Positions 4,090 to 59,592 of a stretch of DNA of 64,000 nucleotides are shown piece by piece. A program made the position numbers and the translations under genes. Origin of the DNA: Thermoplasmata archaeon (GTDB lineage: Archaea; Thermoplasmatota; E2; JACPAO01; JAHFTW01); contig JAHFTW010000009.1 in assembly GCA_023269235.1 (NCBI GenBank), positions 11,872-75,871 of the forward strand, in the 5' to 3' direction. How positions within the stretch are numbered: the first letter of the stretch is position 1; each line of letters starts with the position of its first letter. Below the pieces are notes generated by a model. The model saw only the letters and a program-made list of their open reading frames with translations. It searched no databases and had not been told where the DNA came from.

Positions 4090-4803
4090 ATGTTCACCAT
4101 CATGGCGACCTGTATGGGAATGACCGAGCTGCTGTTCCAGGTCGAGCTTCCCGACTGGCCTGTCTCCCTTTTCACGAAGGAGACCAAGGACGCGCGCGTC
4201 CTGATGAACCACATCCGGTTCGACGACGACCACTTCCCCACCCGCAACGTCTTCACCATCCTCGCCCCGCCCGCGAGCTACCGCGGCATCCTCGCGAAGA
4301 TGCAGGAGTTCTACACCAACGTCACCGTGCTGCGCGAGGACGGCCAGGCGCTCTCCGTGCTCGTCGAGCCGGCGCCGGACAAGATGAAGTTCCTCAAGGC
4401 GCCCTTCACCGCCGCCCTGCGCGCCCTTGGCCCCGACCGCATCCTGCGCCCCATCATCATCCAGAACGGCTGGATGACCGTCGGCATCATCACCGCCGCG
4501 AAAGTGGACATCGGCGAGGTCATCCGCACCGCCGGCGACTCGTTCAAGCGCGCCGGCCTCAACATGAAGCTCATCCGTTGGGGCGAATGGAAAGCCGAGG
4601 AGCACGCGATGAACGACTTCGAGGAGAAGCTCACGCCCAAGCAGGTCGAGATCGTCAAGATGGGCCTCGCGCTCGGCTTCTACGACAACCCGCGCAAGTG
4701 CGACCTCTCCGCCCTCGCCAGCGTCTTCGGAATCTCCAAGGCGGCCGCGCACAACCGCTTGAAGGCCGCAGAACGCAAGATTCTCAGCGCGTACTTCAGC
4801 TAA
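4090..4803 (+). CDS. transcriptional regulator with a C-terminal HTH_10 (Bat-type) DNA-binding domain
   Basis: C-terminus LTPKQVEIVKMGLALGFYDNPRKCDLSALASVFGISKAAAHNRLKAAERKIL matches the HTH_10 signature. The upstream 208 codons of the ORF are antisense to pfdB and are not called. Confidence 0.7.
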   Translation: MFTIMATCMGMTELLFQVELPDWPVSLFTKETKDARVLMNHIRFDDDHFPTRNVFTILAPPASYRGILAKMQEFYTNVTVLREDGQALSVLVEPAPDKMKFLKAPFTAALRALGPDRILRPIIIQNGWMTVGIITAAKVDIGEVIRTAGDSFKRAGLNMKLIRWGEWKAEEHAMNDFEEKLTPKQVEIVKMGLALGFYDNPRKCDLSALASVFGISKAAAHNRLKAAERKILSAYFS

Positions 4804-4876: not shown

Positions 4877-5686
4877 ATGCACCCCACAAAATCGATCCTT
4901 CCCCTCGGCCTTACGCTGGTCTTGGCGGCTGCCGCCCTTGCAGGCTGCACGGCCAACGCCAGCGGTACCGCCGCCATCTACGTCAAGGACGCCCCATCCG
5001 ACGCGTTCACGCACCTTTACGTCTCCTTCACGAAGGCCGAGCTCCATCAACTCCGGGCCGAGCCGAAGGACACCGACGCCAATGAGACCGGCGACGAAGC
5101 TTCCGGCCACGACGACAAGAACGAGACCGAGTCCGAGAAAAACGCCGAAGGCAACTCTGGCAAGGGCCGCCAAGACGGCCAGTTCGGTGAGGAGATGTCG
5201 GCCGACGAAGACCACGGCGAACATGACGGAGCTGACCGCGCCGAAGGCGCCTGGATCACGGTCATGGACCGCAACGTCACGGTCGACTTGAAGGCCTTCG
5301 CGGGCAACGCGAGCGCCTTCCTCGACGCCGCGACCCTGCCCCCCGGGACCTACAACGGCATCCGCCTCACCGTCACGAACGCGGTCGGTGTGCTCGCCAA
5401 CGGAACGCAAGTCCCAGTCAAAGTTCCCAGCGGCGCACTTCGCATCAAGGGCCACTTCATGGTGGTCGCCGGAAAGGAGACCGCGCTCACCCTCGATTTC
5501 AACCTGGCACGCAGCATCGTCGAGACCGGGCACGGCAAATACATCCTGAAGCCGGTTCTCCGCCTCGCCTCCCTGGAGCGCGACGAGGCCAACGACGGAG
5601 AGCACCGCCAACGCGAGGCCCGCCGCGACGAGCACGACCGCGACAGCCGCGAGAAAGAGGGTCGCGGCGTTCACAGCGATCGCTAG
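4877..5686 (+). CDS. DUF4382-type lipoprotein with an acidic insert
   Basis: Signal peptide plus lipobox LAGC. YVKDAPSD ... VTVDLKAF ... GTYNGIRLTV ... KVPSGALRIKG ... LTLDFNLARSI follows the DUF4382 pattern. Confidence 0.65.
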   Translation: MHPTKSILPLGLTLVLAAAALAGCTANASGTAAIYVKDAPSDAFTHLYVSFTKAELHQLRAEPKDTDANETGDEASGHDDKNETESEKNAEGNSGKGRQDGQFGEEMSADEDHGEHDGADRAEGAWITVMDRNVTVDLKAFAGNASAFLDAATLPPGTYNGIRLTVTNAVGVLANGTQVPVKVPSGALRIKGHFMVVAGKETALTLDFNLARSIVETGHGKYILKPVLRLASLERDEANDGEHRQREARRDEHDRDSREKEGRGVHSDR

Positions 5687-10653: not shown

Positions 10654-12078
10654 ATGGCGGAATCCCCGCAGAAGGCACTGGGGCTCACGACGGCCATCAC
10701 AATCATCGTGGGGGCCATGATTGGCTCGGGGATCCTATTCTTGCCGGCGGACATGCTGGCGCTCCTGCCTTCGCCTCCGTTGGTAATGCTGGTCTTCGTC
10801 GTCGCCGCCGTGCTCACCGTCCTCGGTTCCGTCACTGTCGCCGAGCTGTCCGGGATGTTCCCCAAGGCGGGCGGCCAGTACGTGTACCTCCGCGAGGCGT
10901 TCGGGCCCTTCCCAGCCTACCTGTTCGGATGGACGACGTTCTGGGTCGTGCAGACCGGGACCATCGCCGCCGTCGCCGCCGCGTTCGCAAAGGTGCTCGG
11001 CCGCTTCGTCGACCTGCCCGGCGCCAAGACGCCGCTCGTCGTCGCCGGCACCACGTTGCTGACGCTTCCCCCCTACGGCGAGGCGTTCGTCGCCATCGCG
11101 CTCATCCTGCTGCTCACGGCCATCAACTACTTCGGCGTCCGCTTCGGCGGCTTGGTGAGCAACGTCAGCACGTTCGCCAAGGCGACCGGATTGGTCCTCG
11201 TCGTCCTCCTGGTCCTTCTCTTCTACCACGGCCCCAGCCACCTCGTGGACCCCGCGACCCCGGCGCACGCCGACGGGACCGCATTCGGGTTCGGCGAAGC
11301 GTTCCAGGGCTTCGCCCTCTCCTTGGTGCTCATCCTCTTCGCGTACGACGGCTGGTACATGGCGACCTACGTCGCCCACGAGATGCGCAACCCCAAACGG
11401 GACGGCCCTCTCGCCCTGGGCCTCGCACCCCTCGTGACGACGGTCATCTACCTCGCCGTCGCGGCCGTGAGCCTGCACGCCGTGGGACTGACCGACGCCC
11501 TCGACATTCACGTCAACGGCGGCTACCTCGCCGGCAAGGCCGCGGAGATTGCCCTCGGCGACGTGGGGTTGAGCGTGGTGAGTGCCCTCGCGCTCGTCAG
11601 CATCTTCGGCACCACCAACGCCTTCGTCCTCACGGCGCCCCGCATCGCCTACGCCCAGGCGAAGGACGGCCTGTTCTTGCGCTCGATGGGGCGCCTCGAC
11701 CCCAAGCGCGGCACACCGGCGTACGGCTCCATTCTCTGCGGCCTGTGGGCAAGCCTGCTCGTGATGACGGGCCTGTACGACCAGCTCGTCGCCAGCGTGG
11801 TCTTCGCGGTCTTCCTGTTCCACATCCTGACCGCGGCGGCCTGGATGCGCCTGCGCAAGACTCAGCCTGACGCCGAGCGACCCTACAAGACGCCGGGAGG
11901 CCCAATCATCCCCGCACTCTTCCTGGCCACGAGCGCCGCCGTGGTCCTGGCGACCCTGGTGTACCCGGACTACCGCAACCAGGCGCTTCTCGAACTCGGC
12001 ATCATCGCCCTGGGGGTTCCCGTCTATTTCCTCCAGCGGAACAACGCGGCCAAGAAGGCCGCCCTGGGCGCGCCTTAG
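10654..12078 (+). CDS. APC-superfamily amino acid permease (paralog of 8994-10589)
   Basis: ITIIVGAMIGSGILFLPADM, FAYDGW and GTPAYGS are collinear with the upstream paralog. Confidence 0.85.
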   Translation: MAESPQKALGLTTAITIIVGAMIGSGILFLPADMLALLPSPPLVMLVFVVAAVLTVLGSVTVAELSGMFPKAGGQYVYLREAFGPFPAYLFGWTTFWVVQTGTIAAVAAAFAKVLGRFVDLPGAKTPLVVAGTTLLTLPPYGEAFVAIALILLLTAINYFGVRFGGLVSNVSTFAKATGLVLVVLLVLLFYHGPSHLVDPATPAHADGTAFGFGEAFQGFALSLVLILFAYDGWYMATYVAHEMRNPKRDGPLALGLAPLVTTVIYLAVAAVSLHAVGLTDALDIHVNGGYLAGKAAEIALGDVGLSVVSALALVSIFGTTNAFVLTAPRIAYAQAKDGLFLRSMGRLDPKRGTPAYGSILCGLWASLLVMTGLYDQLVASVVFAVFLFHILTAAAWMRLRKTQPDAERPYKTPGGPIIPALFLATSAAVVLATLVYPDYRNQALLELGIIALGVPVYFLQRNNAAKKAALGAP

Positions 12079-12299
12079 GATCGGACGGTCTCGTCGGGCG
12101 TCAGCTTGGCCGCAAGCTGCGGCGCGGTCACCCAGAGCAGGATGGCCGCAAGGCCCGCGACGACCATGGAGCCGGCGTGAAACAGATGGTCGCCACCCGT
12201 GGTGAGGATGAAGGCTAGGCCGATGCTCCAAGCGGGGAGCGCCACCAGGGCCGCCACGACGCGGACAATGACGACCGCTTTCTGGCGGTCGCTGCTCAT
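12075..12299 (-). CDS. small two-TM membrane protein at the distal end of the oxidase operon (possible small oxidase subunit)
   Basis: 74 aa with two hydrophobic helices. Its ATG overlaps the CoxIII stop (ATGA). Confidence 0.45.
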   Translation of the reverse strand: MSSDRQKAVVIVRVVAALVALPAWSIGLAFILTTGGDHLFHAGSMVVAGLAAILLWVTAPQLAAKLTPDETVRS

Positions 12300-16276: not shown

Positions 16277-16339
16277 GCCGCTGCGCAAGGCTCCTCCTCA
16301 AGCGTCTGCATGACGGCACGTGCTGCGCGTTGTGGCGGC

Positions 16340-16400
16340 CTAAGGGGTCAACCGTGTACCATCCCGCGGGAAGAGGACGCTTCCCTGATGTTCGGCAATC
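16340..16400 (-). repeat. degenerate, frameshifted copy of the last ~20 codons of aspS
   Basis: On the minus strand it reads LPNIREA, then, after restoring a 1-nt deletion, ILFPRDGTRLTP-stop. The genuine aspS end is LPNIREAILFPRDVTRLTP-stop at 16509-16568. Confidence 0.7.
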
Positions 16401-16508
16401 TCACGCCGGCGCGCCGAGCGCGGCCGGGAAGCGGCCGTCGCTTCGCTCGGACGACTTGCGCTTGAGCAACCGGGACACGCACTTGCCCGCGAGGGTCCGC
16501 ACCTTCGC

Positions 16509-17867
16509 CTACGGCGTCAGGCGCGTCACATCGCGCGGGAAGAGGATGGCTTCCCTGATGTTCGGAAGCCCCAACATCATCATGAGGATGCGTTCGATGC
16601 CGATGCCGCAGCCGCCATGCGGGGGCATCCCGTAGCGGAAGGCGTCGAGGTAGTCCTTGAAGTCCTTCGGGTCGAGGCCCCAGCGCTTGATGCCCGCCTC
16701 GAGGAGGACGGGGTCGTGGATGCGCTGGCCGCCCGAGATGAGCTCGACGCCGCGGTAGTCCAAATCGAAGCCGCGGCACAGGCGGGAGTCTTGGGTGCCG
16801 TCCTCGGGCATGACGTAGAACGGCTTCGGGGCGAGCGGCCACTTCGTGATGAAGTAGAAGTCGTGGCCCTCGCGCTTCATGGCGCGCCACAGGACCTTCT
16901 CGGCGGAGCTTCCGATGTCGTCGCCAAACTTCAGGTGGGGCATCTTGAGCTCGGCCGGCAGGTCGGTGGCGGTGTCGAGCTCGTGGTTGATGATGGTGAG
17001 CGCCTCCTCGTAGGGGACGCGGCGGAAGCCCTTCGTCGGCACGGGGACGTCGGCCTTGAGGGTCGCGACCTCGGCCGCGCAGTCCGTCGCCACGGCCTTC
17101 CAGATGTGGCTCAGCAGGCCCTCGATGGCCTTCATGACGTCCTCCTCGGACTCGATGAACGAGAGCTCGAGATCGAACGCGGTGGACTCGTTGAGGTGGC
17201 GCACGGTGTTGTGCTTCTCGGCGCGGAAGTACCAGCCGACCTCGAAGACGCGGTCCATGCCGGCGGCCATCATCATCTGCTTGTAGAGCTGCGGCGACTG
17301 GGCCAGGAACGCCTTGCGGCCGAAGTAGTCGAACTTGTAGACGTCCGTTCCGCCCTCGCTGGAGGCGCCCGAGATGTTGGAGGTGTGGATCTCCTGGAAG
17401 CCGTTGGCGCGAAGCCAGGTGCTTCCCGACTCCACGACCTTGTGCCGGATGCGGAAGATGGCCGCGCTGCGGTTGCCGCGCAGGTCGAGGTAGCGGTTGT
17501 CGAGGCGCGTGTCGATGCCGGTCTCGATCTTGTCGTCCCACAGCGCGAACGGCAGGGGTGTCGCGGCGACGTTGAGGACCTTGGCGGCGCTCGGGATGAC
17601 CTCGAAGCCCGCCTTCGCCTTCTCGGTGGCCTGCACGAGGCCGGTGATGGAGACGACGGACTCGGGGCTCAGCGGCGTGAGCTGGTCGAAGAGCGGGCCG
17701 TTGCCCTCCTTCTTGATGACGAACTGGACCAGGCCGGTGCGGTCGCGCAGGACCAGGAACGCCATGGTGCCCTTGGCGCGGATGGTCTGGACCCAGCCCG
17801 CGAAGGTCTGCGTCGTGCCGTAATGGGCGGGCTTGACCTCGCCGCAGCCGAGCGTGCGCAGTGTCAT
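16509..17867 (-). CDS. aspS: aspartyl-tRNA synthetase, archaeal type
   Basis: OB-fold N-domain plus class II motifs (FRAEKHNT, GGQRIHD, GMPPHGGCGIGIERI). Confidence 0.9.
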   Translation of the reverse strand: MTLRTLGCGEVKPAHYGTTQTFAGWVQTIRAKGTMAFLVLRDRTGLVQFVIKKEGNGPLFDQLTPLSPESVVSITGLVQATEKAKAGFEVIPSAAKVLNVAATPLPFALWDDKIETGIDTRLDNRYLDLRGNRSAAIFRIRHKVVESGSTWLRANGFQEIHTSNISGASSEGGTDVYKFDYFGRKAFLAQSPQLYKQMMMAAGMDRVFEVGWYFRAEKHNTVRHLNESTAFDLELSFIESEEDVMKAIEGLLSHIWKAVATDCAAEVATLKADVPVPTKGFRRVPYEEALTIINHELDTATDLPAELKMPHLKFGDDIGSSAEKVLWRAMKREGHDFYFITKWPLAPKPFYVMPEDGTQDSRLCRGFDLDYRGVELISGGQRIHDPVLLEAGIKRWGLDPKDFKDYLDAFRYGMPPHGGCGIGIERILMMMLGLPNIREAILFPRDVTRLTP

Positions 17868-17893
17868 CGCGGGCGCGACGGAGGGGCTCTACT

Positions 17894-20861: not shown

Positions 20862-20915
20862 GGCCGTGCCATCGGGTCCGCGGCTTGACGGTTGGGGTCG
20901 GTGCGCGCGAAAGGG

Positions 20916-21218
20916 CTAGTGGCTGTGGCCCTGGTGGCCGTCGTCGTCGCCGCAGTCTCCGCAGTCCCCGCAGTCGCAGTCGTCGCCGCAGCACTTGCAG
21001 CCGCCGCTGGGCCCGCACGCGTCGCCGCAGCAGTCGCAGCCCCCGGAACAGCCGGAGCCACACCAGCTGGAGAGCGAAAGCAAGGCCAAGCTGACGATGA
21101 CGGTCAGGTTGAGGAAGATGAACGCGAGGTCGTTGGAGACCCAGGCGGGCTTGGCCCACCAGATGTAGAGGAACTCCAGCAATCCGAAACCGAGCAGCGT
21201 CCAGGCAGGCCAGCGCAT
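20916..21218 (-). CDS. membrane-anchored Cys/Asp-rich (metallothionein-like) protein, paralog B (100 aa)
   Basis: Two hydrophobic helices, then SWCGSGCSGGCDCCGDACGPSGGCKCCGDDCDCGDCGDCGDDDGHQGHSH. G/C-rich third positions on this strand. The antisense ORF is low-complexity Ala/Val. Confidence 0.55.
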   Translation of the reverse strand: MRWPAWTLLGFGLLEFLYIWWAKPAWVSNDLAFIFLNLTVIVSLALLSLSSWCGSGCSGGCDCCGDACGPSGGCKCCGDDCDCGDCGDCGDDDGHQGHSH

Positions 21219-21265
21219 GCCCGGAAACCTGGGCCCTCGTTCTTCAGGCTTGCGACCCGGCCCGG

Positions 21266-21598
21266 TCAGGCGTGGTCGTGCTCGCCGTCGCCGCAGTCCG
21301 AGCAGTCGCCGCAGTCGCAGTCGTCGCCGCAGCAGCCGCAGGAGCCGCCCTCGCAGCAGGGGCCGTCGTCGCAGCAGTCGCCGCAGGAGTCGTCGCAGCA
21401 CTGGGCGAGGACGGTGTTGCAGGCGGTCTGCAGGCCGAGGAGGCCGGCGGAGAGGACCAGGAGGCCGCCGATGACGAGGGGGCCGGCGAGCACGAGCAGG
21501 CTAACGTTGCCCGTGATGAAGGCGAACACGACGCCGGTGATGAAGAGCAGGAGACCGAAGAGGACGGCGAGCCAGGATGCGGCGGTGAAGTTGCGCAT
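21266..21598 (-). CDS. membrane-anchored Cys/Asp-rich (metallothionein-like) protein, paralog A (110 aa)
   Basis: Two TM helices, then QTACNTVLAQCCDDSCGDCCDDGPCCEGGSCGCCGDDCDCGDCSDCGDGEHDHA. Shares CCGDDCDCGDC-x-DCGD with paralog B. Confidence 0.6.
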   Translation of the reverse strand: MRNFTAASWLAVLFGLLLFITGVVFAFITGNVSLLVLAGPLVIGGLLVLSAGLLGLQTACNTVLAQCCDDSCGDCCDDGPCCEGGSCGCCGDDCDCGDCSDCGDGEHDHA

Positions 21599-21653
21599 GG
21601 CCCAGGCGTCGCGCGCGCCCTGATGAGGCTTTGGGAAGGCCGCGAAGCCACTC

Positions 21654-41650: not shown

Positions 41651-44246
<2,596 letters not shown>

Positions 44247-50045: not shown

Positions 50046-50498
50046 GTGAAAATCGTCGCCGAGTTCCGCGAATTCGCGCTCAAAGGCAACGTCATGGACC
50101 TCGCGGTCGGCGTCATCATCGGCGCCGCCTTCGGCGCCATCGTTAAGTCGCTCGTGGACGACCTCATCATGCCGCTCGTCGGCCTCCTGCTCGGCGGAGT
50201 GGACTTCTCCGACCGGTACTACGTCCTGAAAGGCTCCGTGCCCAGCGGAACGAGCCTGGAGGAGGCCCGCAAGGTGGCCGGTGCCTCCCTGCTCGCCTAC
50301 GGCCATTTCCTGAACAACGTGCTGACCTTCCTCATCGTCGCGGTCGCGGTCTTCCTCATCGTGAAGGCGATGAACCGCTTGCGCCGCAAGGGCCCCGCCC
50401 CATCGCCAACGACCCGCGCCTGCCCGGAGTGCACCTCCCCGATCCCACTTGCGGCACGGCGCTGCCCCCAGTGCACGGCGGCCGTCGCAAGGCCCTGA
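50046..50498 (+). CDS. mscL: large-conductance mechanosensitive channel MscL with a C-terminal CxxC...CxxC tail (GTG start)
   Basis: [41 protein letters not shown], with the tail [18 protein letters not shown]. Confidence 0.85.
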
Positions 50499-50504
50499 GA
50501 GAAA

Positions 50505-50515
50505 CCCTTATGGGG
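50505..50515 (+). promoter_or_regulatory. TATA-like promoter element (CCCTTATGGGG)
   Basis: ~28 nt upstream of the ATG at 50536. Confidence 0.45.
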
Positions 50516-50535
50516 CGCGAACCGAACGCGCCCCC

Positions 50536-51483
50536 ATGCAGAAGTCTTGGGCCGTGGTCGTCCTCCTCCTCGCCACCGTGCTGGCCGGCTGCGCCGCGAG
50601 CACCGACACGGAGACCAACGCGCCGAAGCTCCAGGTCACGAGCGACACAGGCGGCATCCGCGGCGTCGTCCTCGACGAGCGCATCGTCCCGGTCGTCGGC
50701 GCCCTGGTGAGCCTCACGAAGGAGAAGACCGCCAAAACCGACGCGCAGGGCCTGTTCAACTTCACCGGCCTGAAGGAAGGCGACTACCTTCTCAAGGTCA
50801 CGAAGCTGGGCTACGAGTCGAGCCAGACCACGGCGCACGTGACGGCCGGCGTCGCCGACCCCGCCGTCGTGAAGATCCAGATTCCGCTCATCCCCGGCTT
50901 CAAGGCGTCGCGCGACATCTTCAAGCTCGACGGGTTCTACGAGTGCGGCTTCGCCATCGGCCAAGCGGGCCGGCCTTTCATCACCGACCAGTGCGACATG
51001 GCCGTGCGGACCTTGTACGACGGCTTCAACGGCACCATCCCGGGCTACCCGTTGCCCCGCAACGTCGAGCAGGGCACGAACACGCAGTTCATCCAGGTCG
51101 CCGCCGACGTGCAGAGCATCGTCCAGCAGACCTACTGGGAGGACGCCGCGGTCGGCAACATGATGACGACGCTCTCCTCGACGCCCATCTCCAACGACTG
51201 CGACTGCAGCAAGACCGACTACATGTTCAACTTCGTCAAGCCCGGCGAGGTCATGCGCTCCGACTTGAGCGCTGGTGGCGCCACCACCTACCAGGATGGC
51301 TACGACAACCCGCACATTTTCCCCGCGGGCCTTGAGGTGGCCTCGCGCAGCTTCCTCAACTGGGAGAGCATCTCCACGGCGCAGAACCTGAAGTTCCAGG
51401 TCATCACCGTGCTCTTCCACAACTACGAGGCCCAGGCGGGCTTCGACTTCGCGAAGATCAAGGAGTACCCAGTCCCGACCTAG
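50536..51483 (+). CDS. lipoprotein, paralog 1 of 4: carboxypeptidase-regulatory-like (Ig-like) N-domain plus an uncharacterised Cys-containing C-domain
   Basis: Lipobox LAGC. GGIRGVVLDERIVPVVGALVSL...TDAQGLFNFTGLKEGDYLLKVTKLGYES matches CarboxypepD_reg. Collinear with paralogs 2-4 but lacks the KGDKxPF end. Confidence 0.7.
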   Translation: MQKSWAVVVLLLATVLAGCAASTDTETNAPKLQVTSDTGGIRGVVLDERIVPVVGALVSLTKEKTAKTDAQGLFNFTGLKEGDYLLKVTKLGYESSQTTAHVTAGVADPAVVKIQIPLIPGFKASRDIFKLDGFYECGFAIGQAGRPFITDQCDMAVRTLYDGFNGTIPGYPLPRNVEQGTNTQFIQVAADVQSIVQQTYWEDAAVGNMMTTLSSTPISNDCDCSKTDYMFNFVKPGEVMRSDLSAGGATTYQDGYDNPHIFPAGLEVASRSFLNWESISTAQNLKFQVITVLFHNYEAQAGFDFAKIKEYPVPT

Positions 51484-51504: not shown

Positions 51505-51517
51505 AATGGTTATGCGG
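51505..51517 (+). promoter_or_regulatory. TATA-like promoter element (AATGGTTATGCGG)
   Basis: ~29 nt upstream of the ATG at 51539. It overlaps the alternative ATG at 51506, which argues against that start. Confidence 0.45.
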
Positions 51518-51538
51518 CCGCCAGGTGGTCGCTCGACC

Positions 51539-52507
51539 ATGGTTCGCTTGCTGGTGGCTGGACTCATTCTAGGCGCTCTCCTCGCCGGGTGCGCGGGAAC
51601 GCCAGGCCCGACATCCTCCTCGGACGCCGCGCGATTCGACGACCTGCAGGGCCAAGCGACGGAGACGACGGGGATCATCCGCGGCGTCGTCGTGGACACG
51701 GCCGTGACCCCCATCGCCAAGGCGACGGTCCTCGTGAGCGGCCCCGTCAAGCAGAACCTCACCACGGACGCGCAGGGTCGCTTCCTCGCCCAAGGCCTCC
51801 CGGCGGGCACCTACCTCGTCAAGGCGAAGGCGCCGCTCTATGTGGAGGCGCAGACGACGGCGGAAGTGGTCGCCGGCGTGAGCGACCCGGCTGTGACGAA
51901 GGTGCAACTGCAGCGCCTCTTCAGCCAGAAGCCGTTCGTCCAGGCCGACCACAAGCGCGGCTACTTCGACTGCTCGCAAAACGGGGCGGGCATCTACTCC
52001 TCCAGCAACTGCGTCACCGACCAATGCCCGCTCGTGCTCGACCCGGCCACGTGCAACAGCTTGCCGACCCGCATGATGGACAACATCACGACGCAAAGCC
52101 GCGAGTGGCACATGGACGTCGGCCCCGGATGGCAGAACATCGTCTTGGAGATGCAGTGGACGCAGGCCACCGCAGGCACCGGCTCGACCCTCGGCATGGT
52201 CGTGAGCACCTTCAAGCCGCTGCGCAACCCAGCGCACTCGTTCGCGAATGTCGCGGGCACGAGCCCCTTCCTGCTCCGCCTTGACGTCGGCGTGAAGCAC
52301 CCGACGGCCGCGAGCGTGGAGCCCACCATGATCCCGGCGGAGGGCATGAACCAGGTGAGCTACTTCGTCTCCGCGCGCCGCGACGCCGGCTCGCCGCTGC
52401 CCGGCATCGCGTTCCAGCAGAACTTCGACGTCTACTACCACCAGTTCTACTACGGCCTTGCTCCCACGGACTGGTCCTTCCTGAAGGGCGACAAGGCCCC
52501 CTTCTAG
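51539..52507 (+). CDS. lipoprotein, paralog 2 of 4 (CarboxypepD_reg-like plus unknown C-domain, C-terminus WSFLKGDKAPF)
   Basis: Lipobox LAGC. IIRGVVVDTAVTPIAKATVLV...TDAQGRFLAQGLPAGTYLVKAKAPLY. Confidence 0.7.
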   Translation: MVRLLVAGLILGALLAGCAGTPGPTSSSDAARFDDLQGQATETTGIIRGVVVDTAVTPIAKATVLVSGPVKQNLTTDAQGRFLAQGLPAGTYLVKAKAPLYVEAQTTAEVVAGVSDPAVTKVQLQRLFSQKPFVQADHKRGYFDCSQNGAGIYSSSNCVTDQCPLVLDPATCNSLPTRMMDNITTQSREWHMDVGPGWQNIVLEMQWTQATAGTGSTLGMVVSTFKPLRNPAHSFANVAGTSPFLLRLDVGVKHPTAASVEPTMIPAEGMNQVSYFVSARRDAGSPLPGIAFQQNFDVYYHQFYYGLAPTDWSFLKGDKAPF

Positions 52508-52548: not shown

Positions 52549-53478
52549 ATGCGTGTCGGTGTGCTGCTGGTGGCGATGCTCGTCCTCGCGGGCTGCGCCG
52601 GGTCGTCGAGTGGAACCGCAAGCTCGAGCGGAGCCGATTTCTCCGGCTTGGACGGCAAGGCGACGGACACGACCGGCCTTCTGCGCGGCGTCGTCGTCGA
52701 CGTCGCCATCCGGCCCATCGCCGGCGTCGCCATCGCCGCCAAGAGCGGCGCCACGGAGAAGACCACGACCTCGGACGCGCAGGGCCGCTTCCTGCTGAAG
52801 GACCTGCAACCCGGCACGTATCTGGTGAAGGCCACCCACCCTCTCTACCTCGCGGCGCAGACGTCGGTGGACGTGGTGGCCGGTGTGGACGAGCCTCCCA
52901 TCGCGCGCCTCCAGATGGACGCGAAGTTCTCCCAGAAGCCGTTCAGCACCGCGACGAAGTTCGAGGGCTTCGTCGAGTGCGGCTACGAGGCGGTCATCAT
53001 CACGAGCCAGTGCGTCAACGACTACTCCACGCTCGTCATCAACGGCGGCTGCTGCAACCAACTGCGCACCATCCTCGACAACCGCGGCTATGTCGGCGGC
53101 GTGGACCGCGGCTGGCAGACCCTGGTCTTCGAGCTCACCTGGACTCCTTCCGCGCAGGGGACATCGCCCCGCATGGGCATCGTCGTGAGTTACTTCAACC
53201 GCACCGCGAGCGACTGGTTCGCCTCTGTGGACGGCCTCGACCCGGTGCTGGCGCGCCTGGAGACGAACGTCACGCATGAATCGCAGGGGGGCACACCGGA
53301 CAAAATCCGTCCCGAGGGCCAGAACGACCTCTACACGTTTGGCGGCATCCGGGCGGCCGAGGGCCAGTTCATCGGCGCCGGCTTCGAGCAGCGCTTCACC
53401 ATCTACCAGCACAACTTCTACTACGGCTCGCCCCCGGACCCGTGGTCCTTCGTGAAGGGCGACAAGCCTCCATTCTAA
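52549..53478 (+). CDS. lipoprotein, paralog 3 of 4 (C-terminus WSFVKGDKPPF)
   Basis: Lipobox LAGC. LLRGVVVDVAIRPIAGVAIAA...SDAQGRFLLKDLQPGTYLVKATHPLY. Confidence 0.7.
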   Translation: MRVGVLLVAMLVLAGCAGSSSGTASSSGADFSGLDGKATDTTGLLRGVVVDVAIRPIAGVAIAAKSGATEKTTTSDAQGRFLLKDLQPGTYLVKATHPLYLAAQTSVDVVAGVDEPPIARLQMDAKFSQKPFSTATKFEGFVECGYEAVIITSQCVNDYSTLVINGGCCNQLRTILDNRGYVGGVDRGWQTLVFELTWTPSAQGTSPRMGIVVSYFNRTASDWFASVDGLDPVLARLETNVTHESQGGTPDKIRPEGQNDLYTFGGIRAAEGQFIGAGFEQRFTIYQHNFYYGSPPDPWSFVKGDKPPF

Positions 53479-53800
53479 GCCCTTCACGCCGAAGGAATCC
53501 TTCGGCGCCCGCCCGTGCGGGCGACGAAGGTCGTGAAGGGCGACAAGCCCCCATTCTAGGCCCTTCACGCCGAAGGAATCCTTCGGCGCCCGCCCGTGCG
53601 GGCGACGAAGGTCGTGAAGGGCGACAAGCCTCCATTCTAGGCCCTTCACGCCGCAGGAATCCTTCGGCGCCCGCCGCGCGGGCGACGAAGGTCGTGAAGG
53701 GCGACAAGCCTCCATTCTAGGCCCTTCACGCCGCAGGAATCCTTCGGCGCCCGCCGCGCGGGCGACGAAGATCGTGAAGGGCGACAAGCCTCCATTCTGA
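53452..53800 (+). repeat. head-to-tail tandem array of 80-81 nt units (4 full units plus a 27-nt partial), each made of the CDS tail (VKGDKPPF-stop) plus a multi-hairpin block
   Basis: Units start at 53452, 53533, 53614, 53694 and 53774. Unit: GTGAAGGGCGACAAGCCYCCATTCTAR GCCCTTCAC GCCGMAGGAATCCTTCGGC GCCCGCC(CGT/GC)GCGGGC GACGAAGGTC. Confidence 0.9.
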
Positions 53801-53808
53801 GGCCGCAA

Positions 53809-53819
53809 AGGCTTATCGG
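53809..53819 (+). promoter_or_regulatory. TATA-like promoter element (AGGCTTATCGG)
   Basis: ~28 nt upstream of the ATG at 53841 and 9 nt after the repeat array ends. Confidence 0.45.
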
Positions 53820-53840
53820 AGGAACGTCCGCTGCCGACGC

Positions 53841-54779
53841 ATGCGTGGCGTGCTTGTGGTGGCCGTGCTGGTGCTGGCCGGGTGCTCCTCGGCTCCAGTC
53901 GAGCCGACCGGTTCCTCCTCGGGGGCCGACTTCTCGGGACTGGACAATGGCGTGAGCGAGACGACGGGCGCCATCCACGGCGTCGTCGTGGACCCAGCCA
54001 TCGTGCCCGTCGCGGGCGTCACCGTCCTGGCCCATGGCGCGTCGTTCAACCGGAGCCTGCAGAGCGACGCCCTTGGCCGCTTCGTCTTCACCGGGCTGAC
54101 TCCAGGCACCTACTTCCTGGTCCTCACCCATTTGCTATACCACAAGGCACAGACAAGCGTCGAGGTGAAGGCCGGCGTCGAGCCGCAAGTGACCCGGATC
54201 GCCCTCGACCCAGTGTTCACACAGAAGCCGTTCCATGACCAGCACAAGTTCACTGGATACCTCTTCTGCGGCTACTCTGCCGGCCTCACCTCTCCCTGCG
54301 TCTTCGACTACACCCAGCTTGCGTGCGGCGGCGGCTGCGACCCGACCCTGCACGACATCCTCATCCACGCGCAGGGCGACACGCGCTACTTCATCACGGC
54401 CGTCGGCCCGAACTGGCAGACCGAGATCACGGAGCTGAGCTTCGACCCGCCGCAGGCCGGGATCTCGAAGTCCATGACGATGAGCTACAGTTACTTCAAG
54501 CGCACCTCCACCGAATACATGGGCTCGGTGAACGGAGCGAGCCCGCTCCTGCTCCGCCTCGAGCTGGGCGTGGACGGCCCCGGCGCCGCGGGCCCGCGCC
54601 ACCAGATCAACGCCTCGGGCAACGACGACCTGTACATCTTCCTCAACGTTCACGCCGACTCCGGCGGCTTCGTCGGCCTCGCCGTCCAGCAGAAGTTCGA
54701 GGTCGTCGAGACCACGTTCTACAACGCGAAGCCGCCAGCGGACTGGTCGTTCGTGAAGGGCGACAAGTTCCCGTTCTAG
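53841..54779 (+). CDS. lipoprotein, paralog 4 of 4 (C-terminus WSFVKGDKFPF)
   Basis: Lipobox LAGC. AIHGVVVDPAIVPVAGVTVLA...SDALGRFVFTGLTPGTYFLVLTHLLY. Confidence 0.7.
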   Translation: MRGVLVVAVLVLAGCSSAPVEPTGSSSGADFSGLDNGVSETTGAIHGVVVDPAIVPVAGVTVLAHGASFNRSLQSDALGRFVFTGLTPGTYFLVLTHLLYHKAQTSVEVKAGVEPQVTRIALDPVFTQKPFHDQHKFTGYLFCGYSAGLTSPCVFDYTQLACGGGCDPTLHDILIHAQGDTRYFITAVGPNWQTEITELSFDPPQAGISKSMTMSYSYFKRTSTEYMGSVNGASPLLLRLELGVDGPGAAGPRHQINASGNDDLYIFLNVHADSGGFVGLAVQQKFEVVETTFYNAKPPADWSFVKGDKFPF

Positions 54780-54859
54780 GCCCTTCACGCCGCAGGTATC
54801 CTTCGGCGCACGCCGTGCGGGCGACGAAGGTCGTGAAGGGCGACAAGTTCCTGTTCTGA
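54753..54859 (+). repeat. second copy of the repeat system: 80-nt unit plus a 27-nt partial, built from paralog 4's own codon tail
   Basis: GTGAAGGGCGACAAGTTCCCGTTCTAG starts at 54753 and GTGAAGGGCGACAAGTTCCTGTTCTGA at 54833. The same hairpin block lies between them (GCCCTTCACGCCGCAGGTATCCTTCGGCGCACGCCGTGCGGGCGACGAAGGTC). Confidence 0.9.
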
Positions 54860-54860
54860 C

Positions 54861-56081
54861 CTATTCGTCCAGCGGCGCCATGACCAGGCCGCTGCGCGGC
54901 TTCGGCACGAAGTAGGTCGCCTTGGGCGGCATGAGGTGGCCGGCGGCCGCGACGTCGAGCACCGCCGCCGGCGACTCGGGTGGTAGAAGGAACGCCGCCT
55001 GCGCGTGGCCGGAGCGGACCTCCTGAAGAGCGCGGGCCACGTCGCGCGTGAAGCGGACGCGCTCGTCGCCGGCCGGAAGCCCGAGCGGGCCAAGCGCGCG
55101 CTCCTGCAGGCGGCTCACGGCGAGCCGGTCGAGCCGCCCGAGGCCGCGCGCCAGCTCGGCGTCGGGGCGCAGCTGGAGCCGCCACGCGCCGGCCTGGGTC
55201 GCGAGGATGACCTCGCGGCCGTCGGAGGCCAAGCCCCGCAGCGCGGCCAACGGGTCCGCAATGGGCTGCGCGTTCCACGCCGGAAGGTCCGCGGGACCGG
55301 GCGCGGACGGGAGACCGTGGACCAGCCGGTGGGTCGCCTCGATGGCAAGACCGGGGTCGTCGTCGCGGACCAGGAGGGTCAGGATGGCGCCCCGGCGCGG
55401 GTCGCCGGCGGCCTCCTCGAGCGCCGTCTGGTACCGGTGGTGGCCGTCCGCGATGACGAGGGTGCGCTCCTCGAACTGCGCCACAAGCTCGCCGACGGCC
55501 TCGCGGCGGTCGACGCGCCAGAGACGATGCTCGTGGCCGTCGTCGTCGGTGAAGCGGACAAGCTCGTCGATGGCGTTGGAGACGGCGACCTCATTGACCC
55601 AGCCGCGCGGGTCGCGGTAGAGCATCCAGATGGGCTCCATGTCGCAACCGGTGGCCTGGCGGAGCCGGAGGCGGTCCTTCTTCGGGCGGCTCAGGGTCGC
55701 CTCGTGCGGCTTGACGCGGCCGCCAGTGGGGTCGAGCGTGATGCGGCCGATGAGGGCGGTGAGCGTGCGGCGCGCCTCGGGAGGGCCGTGCGCAATGGTG
55801 TAGAGGTAGAGCGCCGGGGCGCGGTCGCGCACGAGCGTGCGGTCGGCGACCCAGGAGCGCAGCGTGTCCGCCGCGCGCGCGTGCCAACTTGGGTGGGCGG
55901 GGCCCTCGCCGTCGCCGGGGTTCTCCTGGCCGCGCACGAGGCGGGCGACGTTGTGCGGGTCGCGGGCGAGGAGGGCGTCGCGCTCGGCCAGCGTGAAGCA
56001 GTCGTGCGGCGGCGTCGTGGTCGCGGCGAGGTCGGTGCCGGGGGCGAAGCGAAGGGCGCGGAACGGACGCAGGACATCCAC
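54861..56081 (-). CDS. DUF1015-family protein
   Basis: VLRPFRALRF ... TTPPHDCF ... IADGHHRY fits the DUF1015 pattern. The GTG at 56081 is preferred, 2 nt after the upstream stop. The ORF is open to the ATG at 56144. Confidence 0.7.
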   Translation of the reverse strand: MDVLRPFRALRFAPGTDLAATTTPPHDCFTLAERDALLARDPHNVARLVRGQENPGDGEGPAHPSWHARAADTLRSWVADRTLVRDRAPALYLYTIAHGPPEARRTLTALIGRITLDPTGGRVKPHEATLSRPKKDRLRLRQATGCDMEPIWMLYRDPRGWVNEVAVSNAIDELVRFTDDDGHEHRLWRVDRREAVGELVAQFEERTLVIADGHHRYQTALEEAAGDPRRGAILTLLVRDDDPGLAIEATHRLVHGLPSAPGPADLPAWNAQPIADPLAALRGLASDGREVILATQAGAWRLQLRPDAELARGLGRLDRLAVSRLQERALGPLGLPAGDERVRFTRDVARALQEVRSGHAQAAFLLPPESPAAVLDVAAAGHLMPPKATYFVPKPRSGLVMAPLDE

Positions 56082-59517: not shown

Positions 59518-59592
59518 GCGCCTGTACTCTAGCTTGGATAAGGGACGGCCCTCCTAAGGCCGATGTCGTGCGTTCGAATCGCACCAGGCGCG
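59518..59592 (+). tRNA. tRNA-Arg (anticodon CCU)
   Basis: Cloverleaf folded by hand. Acceptor GCGCCTG/CAGGCGC. D arm CTCT-AGCTTGGATA-AGGG. Anticodon arm CGGCC-CTCCTAA-GGCCG. Variable loop ATGTC. T arm GTGCG-TTCGAAT-CGCAC. Discriminator G. No encoded CCA and no intron. Confidence 0.9.

Follow-up and report, generated by a model that had tools for sequence, protein, structure and literature searches.

A hairpin-rich tandem repeat across the stop codons of two lipoprotein genes in a Thermoplasmatota archaeon

The locus and its repeat arrays

Within 64 kb of DNA from a Thermoplasmatota archaeon (68% GC; this whole stretch is called the window below), four tandem paralogs on the plus strand encode lipoproteins that carry an LAGC lipobox as well as a CarboxypepD_reg domain and end in the conserved motif PEGWSFxxGDxxPF*. 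The third of these genes is followed by a head-to-tail array of near-identical units, referred to here as the main array, and the fourth by one further unit (Table 1). Each unit consists of the last nine codons of the lipoprotein gene, i.e. a tail of 27 nucleotides (nt) of coding sequence (CDS), and a hairpin-rich block of 53–54 nt. Tandem Repeats Finder delimits the main array at 53450–53804 with a period of 81, 4.4 copies, 97% matches and a score of 638, which makes it the strongest tandem repeat of the window by far. In a repeat search its copies were spaced by 81, 81 and 80 nt, and a fifth copy was detected at 54751–54859. The 15-mer GTGAAGGGCGACAAG occurs exactly at 53452, 53533, 53614, 53694, 53774, 54753 and 54833, and a 30-nt core of the block was found five times where 0 were expected, with no other occurrence in the 64 kb. 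The layout given in an initial annotation of this DNA, a tandem array at 53452–53800 with periods of 81, 81, 80 and 80 nt and a partial unit of 27 nt, plus a further unit with a partial one at 54753–54859 behind paralog 4, was thereby confirmed.

The first tail copy of each array is the true 3' end of the respective open reading frame (ORF), with TAA in paralog 3 and TAG in paralog 4. The main array belongs to the 3' untranslated part of paralog 3 and stops 2–5 nt short of the promoter of paralog 4, a gene that starts 40 nt past the array behind its own TATA box. The second array occupies the entire gap between paralog 4 and the convergent DUF1015 gene, as had been stated initially. Units are 76–79/81 identical to one another and the five blocks 93–100%; along the main array, unit 1 resembles unit 2, and unit 3 resembles unit 4. 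With 81 nt each, units 1 and 2 are in frame, and units 3 and 4 have 80 nt; every tail copy ends in a stop codon. An ORF of 92 amino acids (aa) in another frame (53442–53720, plus strand) crosses units 1–3 and ends with VKGDKPPF*, the 80-nt length of units 3 and 4 bringing it back into the lipoprotein frame. It gives no sign of being used.

Table 1. Genes, repeat units and promoter around the two repeat arrays (positions in the window)
Feature	Position	Strand	Remarks
Paralog 1	50449–51483	+	
Paralog 2	51506–52507	+	Tail CTGAAGGGCGACAAGGCCCCCTTCTAG, no repeat; reference for the unexpanded state
Paralog 3	52549–53478	+	309 aa; C-terminus WSFVKGDKPPF*; functional stop TAA at 53476–53478
Unit 1 (81 nt)	53452–53532	+	27-nt CDS tail GTGAAGGGCGACAAGCCTCCATTCTAA and 54-nt hairpin block
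Unit 2 (81 nt)	53533–53613	+	79/81 identical to unit 1; tail copy ends with TAG
Unit 3 (80 nt)	53614–53693	+	GCAGG variant (mismatch in hairpin 2); loop of hairpin 3 shorter by 1 nt
Unit 4 (80 nt)	53694–53773	+	79/80 identical to unit 3
Terminal 27-nt tail copy, paralog 3	53774–53800	+	Ends with TGA; directly before the paralog 4 promoter
Promoter of paralog 4, BRE/TATA-like (GCCGCAAAGGCTTAT)	53803–53817	+	TTAT 28 nt before the ATG of paralog 4
Paralog 4	53841–54779	+	Lipoprotein gene, 312 aa; functional stop TAG at 54777–54779
Single 80-nt unit behind paralog 4	54753–54832	+	Own 27-nt tail GTGAAGGGCGACAAGTTCCCGTTCTAG and 53-nt block
Terminal tail copy, paralog 4	54833–54859	+	Ends with TGA; abuts the stop of the convergent DUF1015 gene
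Convergent DUF1015 gene	54861–56081	−	Stop at 54861–54863; marks the ancestral boundary of the locus

Ancestral gene ends and transfer of the block

Behind paralog 3, the distal tail copy is followed by GGCCGCAAAGGCTTATCGG, which forms the BRE/TATA element (transcription factor B recognition element and TATA box) at −28 of paralog 4 and is homologous to the sequence past the stop codon of paralog 2 (TAG GGCCGCGCAAACCTTATCGG). Behind paralog 4, the distal tail abuts the DUF1015 stop, as the true gene end does in the syntenic locus L002 (compared loci carry such numbers), which lacks the ~80 nt. Since the distal tail copies thus lie at the ancestral gene end, the block plus one extra tail copy is, judged from the flanks, an insertion that separates the coding body from its former downstream sequence, and the stop codons in present use (TAA and TAG) are those of the proximal tail copies.

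Paralogs 3 and 4 share only 46.7% amino acid and 59% nucleotide identity, with 57% nucleotide identity in the last 150 nt before the tail. They fall into different ortholog groups, paralog 3 being closer to L001_5299 (51.8%) and paralog 4 to L003_5903 (56.6%). Yet their blocks match at 50 of 53–54 positions (93–94%), and the orthologs of paralog 4 in L003, L004 and L011 are devoid of a block. Blocks so similar between paralogs so old argue for recent copying, and the alignments lead us to conclude that paralog 3 was the donor of the block and paralog 4 the recipient, over a distance of 1.3 kb. Both tail copies around the paralog 4 block carry the codons of paralog 4 itself (TTCCCGTTC and TTCCTGTTC). 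The earlier suggestion that tail and block were co-amplified in situ hence applies behind paralog 3, whereas behind paralog 4 the block was copied across and only the tail stems from the recipient.

We propose that the nascent strand left the paralog 4 template after TTCT and entered the paralog 3 block, read off the donor, starting at AG-GCCCTTCAC and continuing across the block and on into the following GTGAAGGGCGACAAG, and then re-annealed at the GTGAAGGGCGACAAG of paralog 4 itself. As this site is upstream of the exit point, the tail of the recipient would be duplicated automatically. An account with these two switches (at TTCT and at GTGAAGGGCGACAAG) appears to be the simplest one and fits every base at the junctions, including the proximal TAG versus the distal TGA.

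Tail duplications at other genes

In a self-comparison of 393 kb of Thermoplasmatota DNA for short-range direct repeats, with internal protein repeats set aside, five of nine such repeats spanned the stop codon of a called gene and had their other copy downstream, whereas none spanned a start codon. The five cases are the two arrays of the window, a class II aminoacyl-tRNA synthetase gene, the gene for ribosomal protein eL15 in L027 and a member of the lipoprotein family in L031.

The synthetase gene (16509–17888, minus strand; Pfam tRNA-synt_2) is located in the window. Its last 59 nt, stop codon TAG included, are duplicated downstream with 83% identity at an offset of 169, the copies being at 16338–16395 and 16507–16565 (minus strand); the downstream copy retains a TAG of its own, and we regard this as an older duplication. 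In L027, another Thermoplasmatota MAG, the eL15 gene (region 4670–4784, minus strand) ends with GGCCGAGCGCACGCGCCAGTAGGCGCG, and a palindrome, CGCGCC-AGTA-GGCGCG, encloses its stop codon. Here, a 37-nt tail segment is found again 78 nt downstream with 92% identity, with a hairpin between the copies. In L031 (6800–6951), which belongs to the metagenome-assembled genome (MAG) SO_2017_GW1_49, a distant family member (26% aa identity) carries 2.5 copies of a 62-nt unit. This unit is made of 26 nt of CDS tail and a 36-nt block of different sequence with the hairpin GCCCGCA-CGC-TGCGGGC; the stop codon is enclosed by a GACCCTTG/CAAGGGTC stem, and the block is unique to its own locus.

Weaker or older cases comprise a pilin-like gene in L004, a doubled tail in L002 and diverged tail copies in L001, L011, L033 and L084. 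In L002 (5902–5949), a tail of 24 nt (AGDERPF*) occurs twice in direct succession and lacks a block. The archaeal type IV pilin-like gene of L004 (region 12049–12097, minus strand) ends with WSFTF*, followed by two 24-nt units that each contain ACGTTCTGA. L001 is a soil or sediment contig of the Joint Genome Institute (JGI), with the regions of interest at 5299–5430 and 4210–4270. Its ortholog of paralog 3 is followed by a hairpin-rich stretch of 130 nt. In this stretch, the gene's tail recurs inverted (GTCGCCTTCGAC), together with a diverged form of the block known from the window (AATCCTTCGGC...GACGAGGTCGTG) and then a decayed tail copy ending in TAG; at the neighbouring paralog, there is just an inverted tail copy.

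The first 132 nt of the window contain another repeat of this kind. An exact direct repeat of 27 nt, ACGGCCGGAGGGTGAATCTCGGCAGGT, lies at 1–27 and 106–132, and between the copies there is an interrupted inverted copy (GCCGAGATTTC...CCCTCCGGCC), which gives the same direct-inverted-direct layout as in the main array. ACGGCCGGAGGGTGAATCTCGGCAGGT includes an in-frame-looking GGA GGG TGA and is ~50 nt upstream of a 93-aa ORF (182–463); the window itself begins inside the repeat. The second ACGGCCGGAGGGTGAATCTCGGCAGGT copy is also the exact end point of L085 (SRR14366791), an independent Logan contig from the same organism.

A hotspot specific to the lipoprotein family was considered and rejected. 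Strong tail duplications were seen in 4/58 family genes versus 2/198 other genes, and once the two window genes that had prompted the analysis are left out (2/56 versus 2/198), the family is not clearly enriched. Going by these genes, stop-spanning tail duplication is not specific to the lipoprotein family. The initial annotation had gone too far in stating that it knew of no described element with this architecture, as repeats overlapping gene ends are ordinary loci at which the number of tandem repeats varies (VNTRs) and stop-spanning tail duplications also occur at unrelated housekeeping genes here.

The tail-block-tail arrangement, with its duplication of 25–27 nt, formally equals a target-site duplication. 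One might thus view the block as a miniature site-specific mobile element that enters GTGAAGGGCGACAAG...TTCT via a staggered cut duplicating ~25 nt, in the manner of Cas1 or a casposase, the array being built by repeated insertion into the duplicated target. In line with this, recipient-specific direct repeats of 25–27 nt flank the block in both genes at an identical codon, old paralogs share a block that is 93–94% identical, the syntenic relative shows the empty site, and the two ends of the block show a weak inverted similarity (GGCCCTTCACGCC against GACCTTCGTCGCC as reverse complement), owing to CCTTC/GAAGG motifs. On the other hand, target duplications of known transposases are far shorter than 25–27 nt. 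Also, the duplicated lengths across the cases described here are 9, 15, 24, 27, 28, 37 and 59 nt (9–59 nt for cases other than the window arrays) with unrelated intervening sequences, which is a poor fit to a single enzyme with a fixed stagger. Beyond the two arrays, we found no copy of the block in the 64-kb window, in 84 other loci or in 330 kb of DNA from related genomes, and none in JGI metagenome contigs or in viral contigs, the latter having been scanned twice. A scan of the JGI metagenome contigs for GCCGNAGGNATCCTTCGGCGC gave 46 single chance matches with dissimilar flanks, and a dispersed mobile element was accordingly rejected. The surroundings of the array are housekeeping genes that are syntenic across genomes, and no transposase or integrase was seen adjoining it. 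Altogether, we hold insertion by such an element to be highly improbable. A reading as a MITE (miniature inverted-repeat transposable element) with a 25-nt target duplication, which had been denied initially, is improbable given the lack of other copies and the varying duplication lengths elsewhere; the initial statement that there are no target duplications is debatable in view of the tail copies that flank the block.

Hairpins and tests for a conserved structure

According to RNAfold, one unit reaches −44.7 kcal/mol, far below shuffled versions of itself (z = −5.4). The four hairpins per unit predicted initially were reproduced: H1 has 9 bp and encloses the stop codon, H2 has 8–9 bp and H3 6–7 bp. 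H4 is limited to 3–4 bp, and both H2 and H4 face competition from an alternative long stem, CCTTCG-G-CGCCCG / CGGGCG-A-CGAAGG. H2 suffers from an uncompensated C/T mismatch in units 3 and 4 and in the paralog 4 copy, where H3 is altered as well. The initial annotation had proposed a covariation test; when run on the five units, which are nearly identical and give the test low power, it revealed compensatory changes in 0 of 22 predicted pairs and three substitutions that break pairs. At the stop codons of the Thermoplasmatota genomes compared, stop-enclosing stems were neither in excess nor longer than at control positions within the CDS, and a general stop-codon hairpin in these genomes was rejected on these grounds. 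A scan of 53400–54900 detected no terminator of the hairpin plus T-run type, and the units are free of T-runs, in agreement with the initial statement that oligo-T is lacking, so that the array is not an intrinsic terminator. In the Rfam search of the window, only a tRNA at 59518–59592 passed its gathering threshold. The best matches to the array (E <= 1) attained 25 bits or less, with gathering thresholds of 40–150, so that no described RNA family matches.

Could the hairpins be what selection maintains? They might form an RNA module of the 3' untranslated region (UTR) in which stable hairpins, one of them sequestering the stop codon together with the last codons, guard the mRNA from 3' exonucleases or help to set the 3' end in a genome devoid of T-rich terminators; the anti-tail GCCCTTCAC could then pair in trans with the mRNA tails of sister paralogs, and repetition would strengthen the effect. 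Such a module would be consistent with the folding energy, with the position of the array exactly between stop codon and next promoter, with the restriction of gene-boundary duplications to 3' ends and with the diverged block kept at the L001 ortholog. Moreover, the tail-complementary arms track the tail of their own gene, namely GTGAAGGGC/GCCCTTCAC in the window, GACCCTTG/CAAGGGTC in L031, and CGTCGACGGCG/CGCCGTCGACG and GTCGCAGGCGAC/GTCGCCTTCGAC in L001. However, such own-tail arms are equally expected from inverted copying (PMC8794818). The absence of covariation with three stem-breaking changes among five units, the lack of an Rfam match and the finding that stop-enclosing stems are not enriched genome-wide argue against a selected structure, and most family members have no block, including the paralog 4 orthologs and the syntenic L002. 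We therefore judge the RNA module to be unlikely. The roles put forward initially, i.e. reiterated terminators, a small-RNA array or a hotspot of paralog expansion, gained no support, as there is no covariation, no dispersed copy and no general excess of hairpins around stop codons. Finally, tail, hairpins and second tail might together represent a self-propagating 3'-end cassette of the Thermoplasmatota, in which the short hairpin block would copy itself behind genes with a common tail motif, duplicate ~25 nt of each recipient so as to leave the protein intact, and be retained because hairpins that sequester the stop codon determine the mRNA 3' end or its stability; this seems quite unlikely to us.

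Probable origin, growth and tolerance of the array

We favour the explanation, with a probability of roughly 60%, that the array is a stop-codon-straddling minisatellite (VNTR) that arose through replication or repair errors without any dedicated system and is tolerated by selection. The coding sequence itself holds a palindrome, CCTTCGTGAAGG, at the W-S-F-V-K-G codons. The first 9 nt of the block, GCCCTTCAC, are the exact reverse complement of the tail start, and the 3' part of the block (GTGCGGGCGACGAAGGTC) resembles the tail (GTGAAGGGCGACAAGCCTC). GAAGG/CCTTC is encountered five times in the 81-nt unit in alternating orientation, versus 0.43 expected. Template switching has been documented to form perfect hairpins in one step (PMC8794818, PMC7202029), and the direct-inverted-direct layout is suggestive of short-range template switching or snap-back synthesis, which would yield just this arrangement. 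In a first step, such an event at the CCTTCGTGAAGG palindrome may have produced a block built largely from tail fragments in alternating orientation, inverted and direct, with a second direct tail behind it (A, inverted A, A). The two direct tails of 27 nt that then flanked the block would have made slipped-strand mispairing or unequal recombination possible, by which the paralog 3 locus presumably expanded to the 4.3 units present today; the likeness of unit 1 to 2 and of unit 3 to 4 fits successive duplications. After the transfer to paralog 4 described above, the additional sequence lies upstream of the neighbour's promoter or of the end of the convergent gene; as translation terminates at the first stop codon, the proteins are unchanged and the array would be tolerated. 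As a side effect, the hairpins might stabilise the mRNA 3' end, with no indication of selection for them.

Several observations do not sit easily with this minisatellite origin. The resemblance of the block to the 3' end of its own gene is only weakly significant (z = 2.5 for inverted and ~1 for direct alignment). The more specific idea that the block is a decayed copy of the last 70–140 nt of the CDS was dropped as unproven, since alignments that had seemed convincing to the eye lacked significance (z = 0.7–2.5). The diverged block and tail copy at the paralog 3 ortholog of L001 (score 33–34, z ~4) have the best score of all family downstream regions; if homologous, this block has lasted much longer than expected of neutral non-coding DNA between direct repeats in a compact genome, which would hint at selection or at continual re-templating from the conserved tail. 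The five gene-boundary duplications without exception affect 3' ends, a bias over 5' ends that a pure filter for neutrality does not fully predict. For this bias and the L001 block alike, the reason could instead be re-templating from the conserved tail together with a stronger selection against duplications at 5' ends.

A last reservation concerns the copy number of the array, which is that of the metagenome assembly. The copy number, or part of the array, might be a short-read assembly artefact in which a loop of the graph was miscounted or strain variants were chained. Near-identical units of 80–81 nt are shorter than typical reads, and the break of the independent k=31 Logan assembly (SRR14366791) exactly at the other 27-nt repeat of this genome indicates that such repeats disturb assemblies; the Logan contig of the same organism covers a region other than the array. 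Assemblers usually collapse rather than expand tandem repeats, though. Distinct unit variants in a consistent order, private variants in the paralog 4 unit with correct synteny on both sides, and analogous arrays in independent assemblies of other MAGs likewise speak for a genuine array, and an artefact is in our opinion very unlikely.

Comparison with known systems

As contiguous head-to-tail copies of high identity with a unit in the range of ~10–100 nt, the main array conforms to the definition of a minisatellite or VNTR, and the presence of 4.3 copies at paralog 3 versus 1.3 at paralog 4 is at most an indirect pointer to variation in copy number between strains. The nearest named relatives are the interspersed repetitive units of mycobacteria (MIRUs), whose boundaries overlap the stop and start codons of flanking genes (as summarised in PMC12548453). 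Like the main array, MIRUs are head-to-tail units of tens of bases between co-oriented genes of a high-GC genome, with boundaries that overlap stop and start codons without disturbing the coding sequence and a copy number that is expected to vary by slippage. In contrast to MIRUs, which are dispersed at many loci, apparently mobile and inserted at start codons, the block was found at two paralog ends only among the window, the 84 other loci and the metagenome and viral collections, and its unit contains the last nine codons of the upstream gene. Also, a MIRU carries a small ORF whose translation is coupled to that of the gene behind it, whereas the main array has no such ORF and the gene downstream of it has its own promoter and is probably leaderless.

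Quasipalindrome mutations caused by template switching resemble the array in their direct-inverted-direct layout and in perfect stems with arms taken from neighbouring sequence (PMC8794818, PMC7202029), as well as in being seeded at a natural palindrome, which in the window array is located within coding sequence. They differ in that they are usually single small conversions or inversions, whereas the product in the window was amplified as an 81-nt array and copied over 1.3 kb, with switch points that we infer here rather than reconstruct from an ancestor.

The alternation of a 27-nt repeat with a segment of 53–54 nt, in which the repeat would be duplicated per insertion, is reminiscent of clustered regularly interspaced short palindromic repeats (CRISPRs) or of a neo-CRISPR formed by off-target spacer integration. 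However, all intervening segments have the same sequence, the repeat is a CDS end and the spacer length is atypical; the identical spacers bear out the initial view that this is not a CRISPR locus. A diversity-generating retroelement, with a repeat pair at the 3' end of the gene that differs at adenines and a reverse transcriptase close by, does not fit either, as the copies differ by T/C, A/G and A/C exchanges at only 1–5 positions, no more than 27 nt of coding sequence are repeated and the neighbours are the DUF1015 gene, a hexapeptide-repeat gene and MscL. Translational bypassing elements, known from gene 60 of phage T4 and the "byp" inserts of yeast mitochondria, are GC-rich inserts on the 50-nt scale like the block, with a stop codon within a hairpin right after a codon that recurs identically downstream. 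In the window, every downstream tail copy meets TAG or TGA after the matching codons and no ORF continues; since the frame meets a stop at once after the downstream copy, bypassing would have no product.

Promoters, neighbouring genes and gene family

TTAT boxes at 50508, 51510, 52521 and 53813 precede the ATG of all four paralogs by 28–29 nt, with BRE-like GCAAA/GAAAC ahead of them. Each paralog of the window thus has, to judge by these motifs, its own promoter, and the transcripts are probably leaderless. The same cGAAAccgTTATc motif also precedes many family genes in other MAGs. The lipoprotein family occurs in similar tandem arrays at 33 loci of other Thermoplasmatota MAGs (89 genes in all), and the protein clusters of paralogs 3 and 4 comprise one contig each. 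Besides the DUF1015 gene, the neighbours include a hexapeptide-repeat gene and MscL, the latter assigned by motif and synteny.

Elsewhere in the window, internal direct repeats were recorded at 20941–21384 and 43676–44134, inside the coding regions 20889–21623 and 42987–44246, respectively. The former region also has many tandem repeats of the GCAGTCGTC type (9–18 nt); both probably encode repetitive proteins.

Implications

VNTRs as such are known; what is new here is an archaeal, hairpin-rich and stop-spanning minisatellite that has been copied between paralogs. In practical terms, and if the favoured explanation holds, the array could serve as a VNTR marker for strain typing in an uncultured lineage; it also advises caution with gene callers and CRISPR finders. 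If the block were a selected or mobile 3' module, which we consider the minority reading, it would bear on how high-GC archaea define and protect their mRNA 3' ends, and a self-propagating cassette would be new as a class, whether of tiny site-specific insertions or of regulatory 3' modules, in archaea without canonical terminators. If, as we favour, replication or repair errors built the minisatellite, the locus would offer a natural example of template switching and slippage creating a hairpin-rich 3' UTR from coding sequence, with the product hopping between tandem paralogs while the proteins remain untouched. It would also illustrate why, in compact archaeal genomes, tandem duplications persist mainly where they straddle the stop codon.

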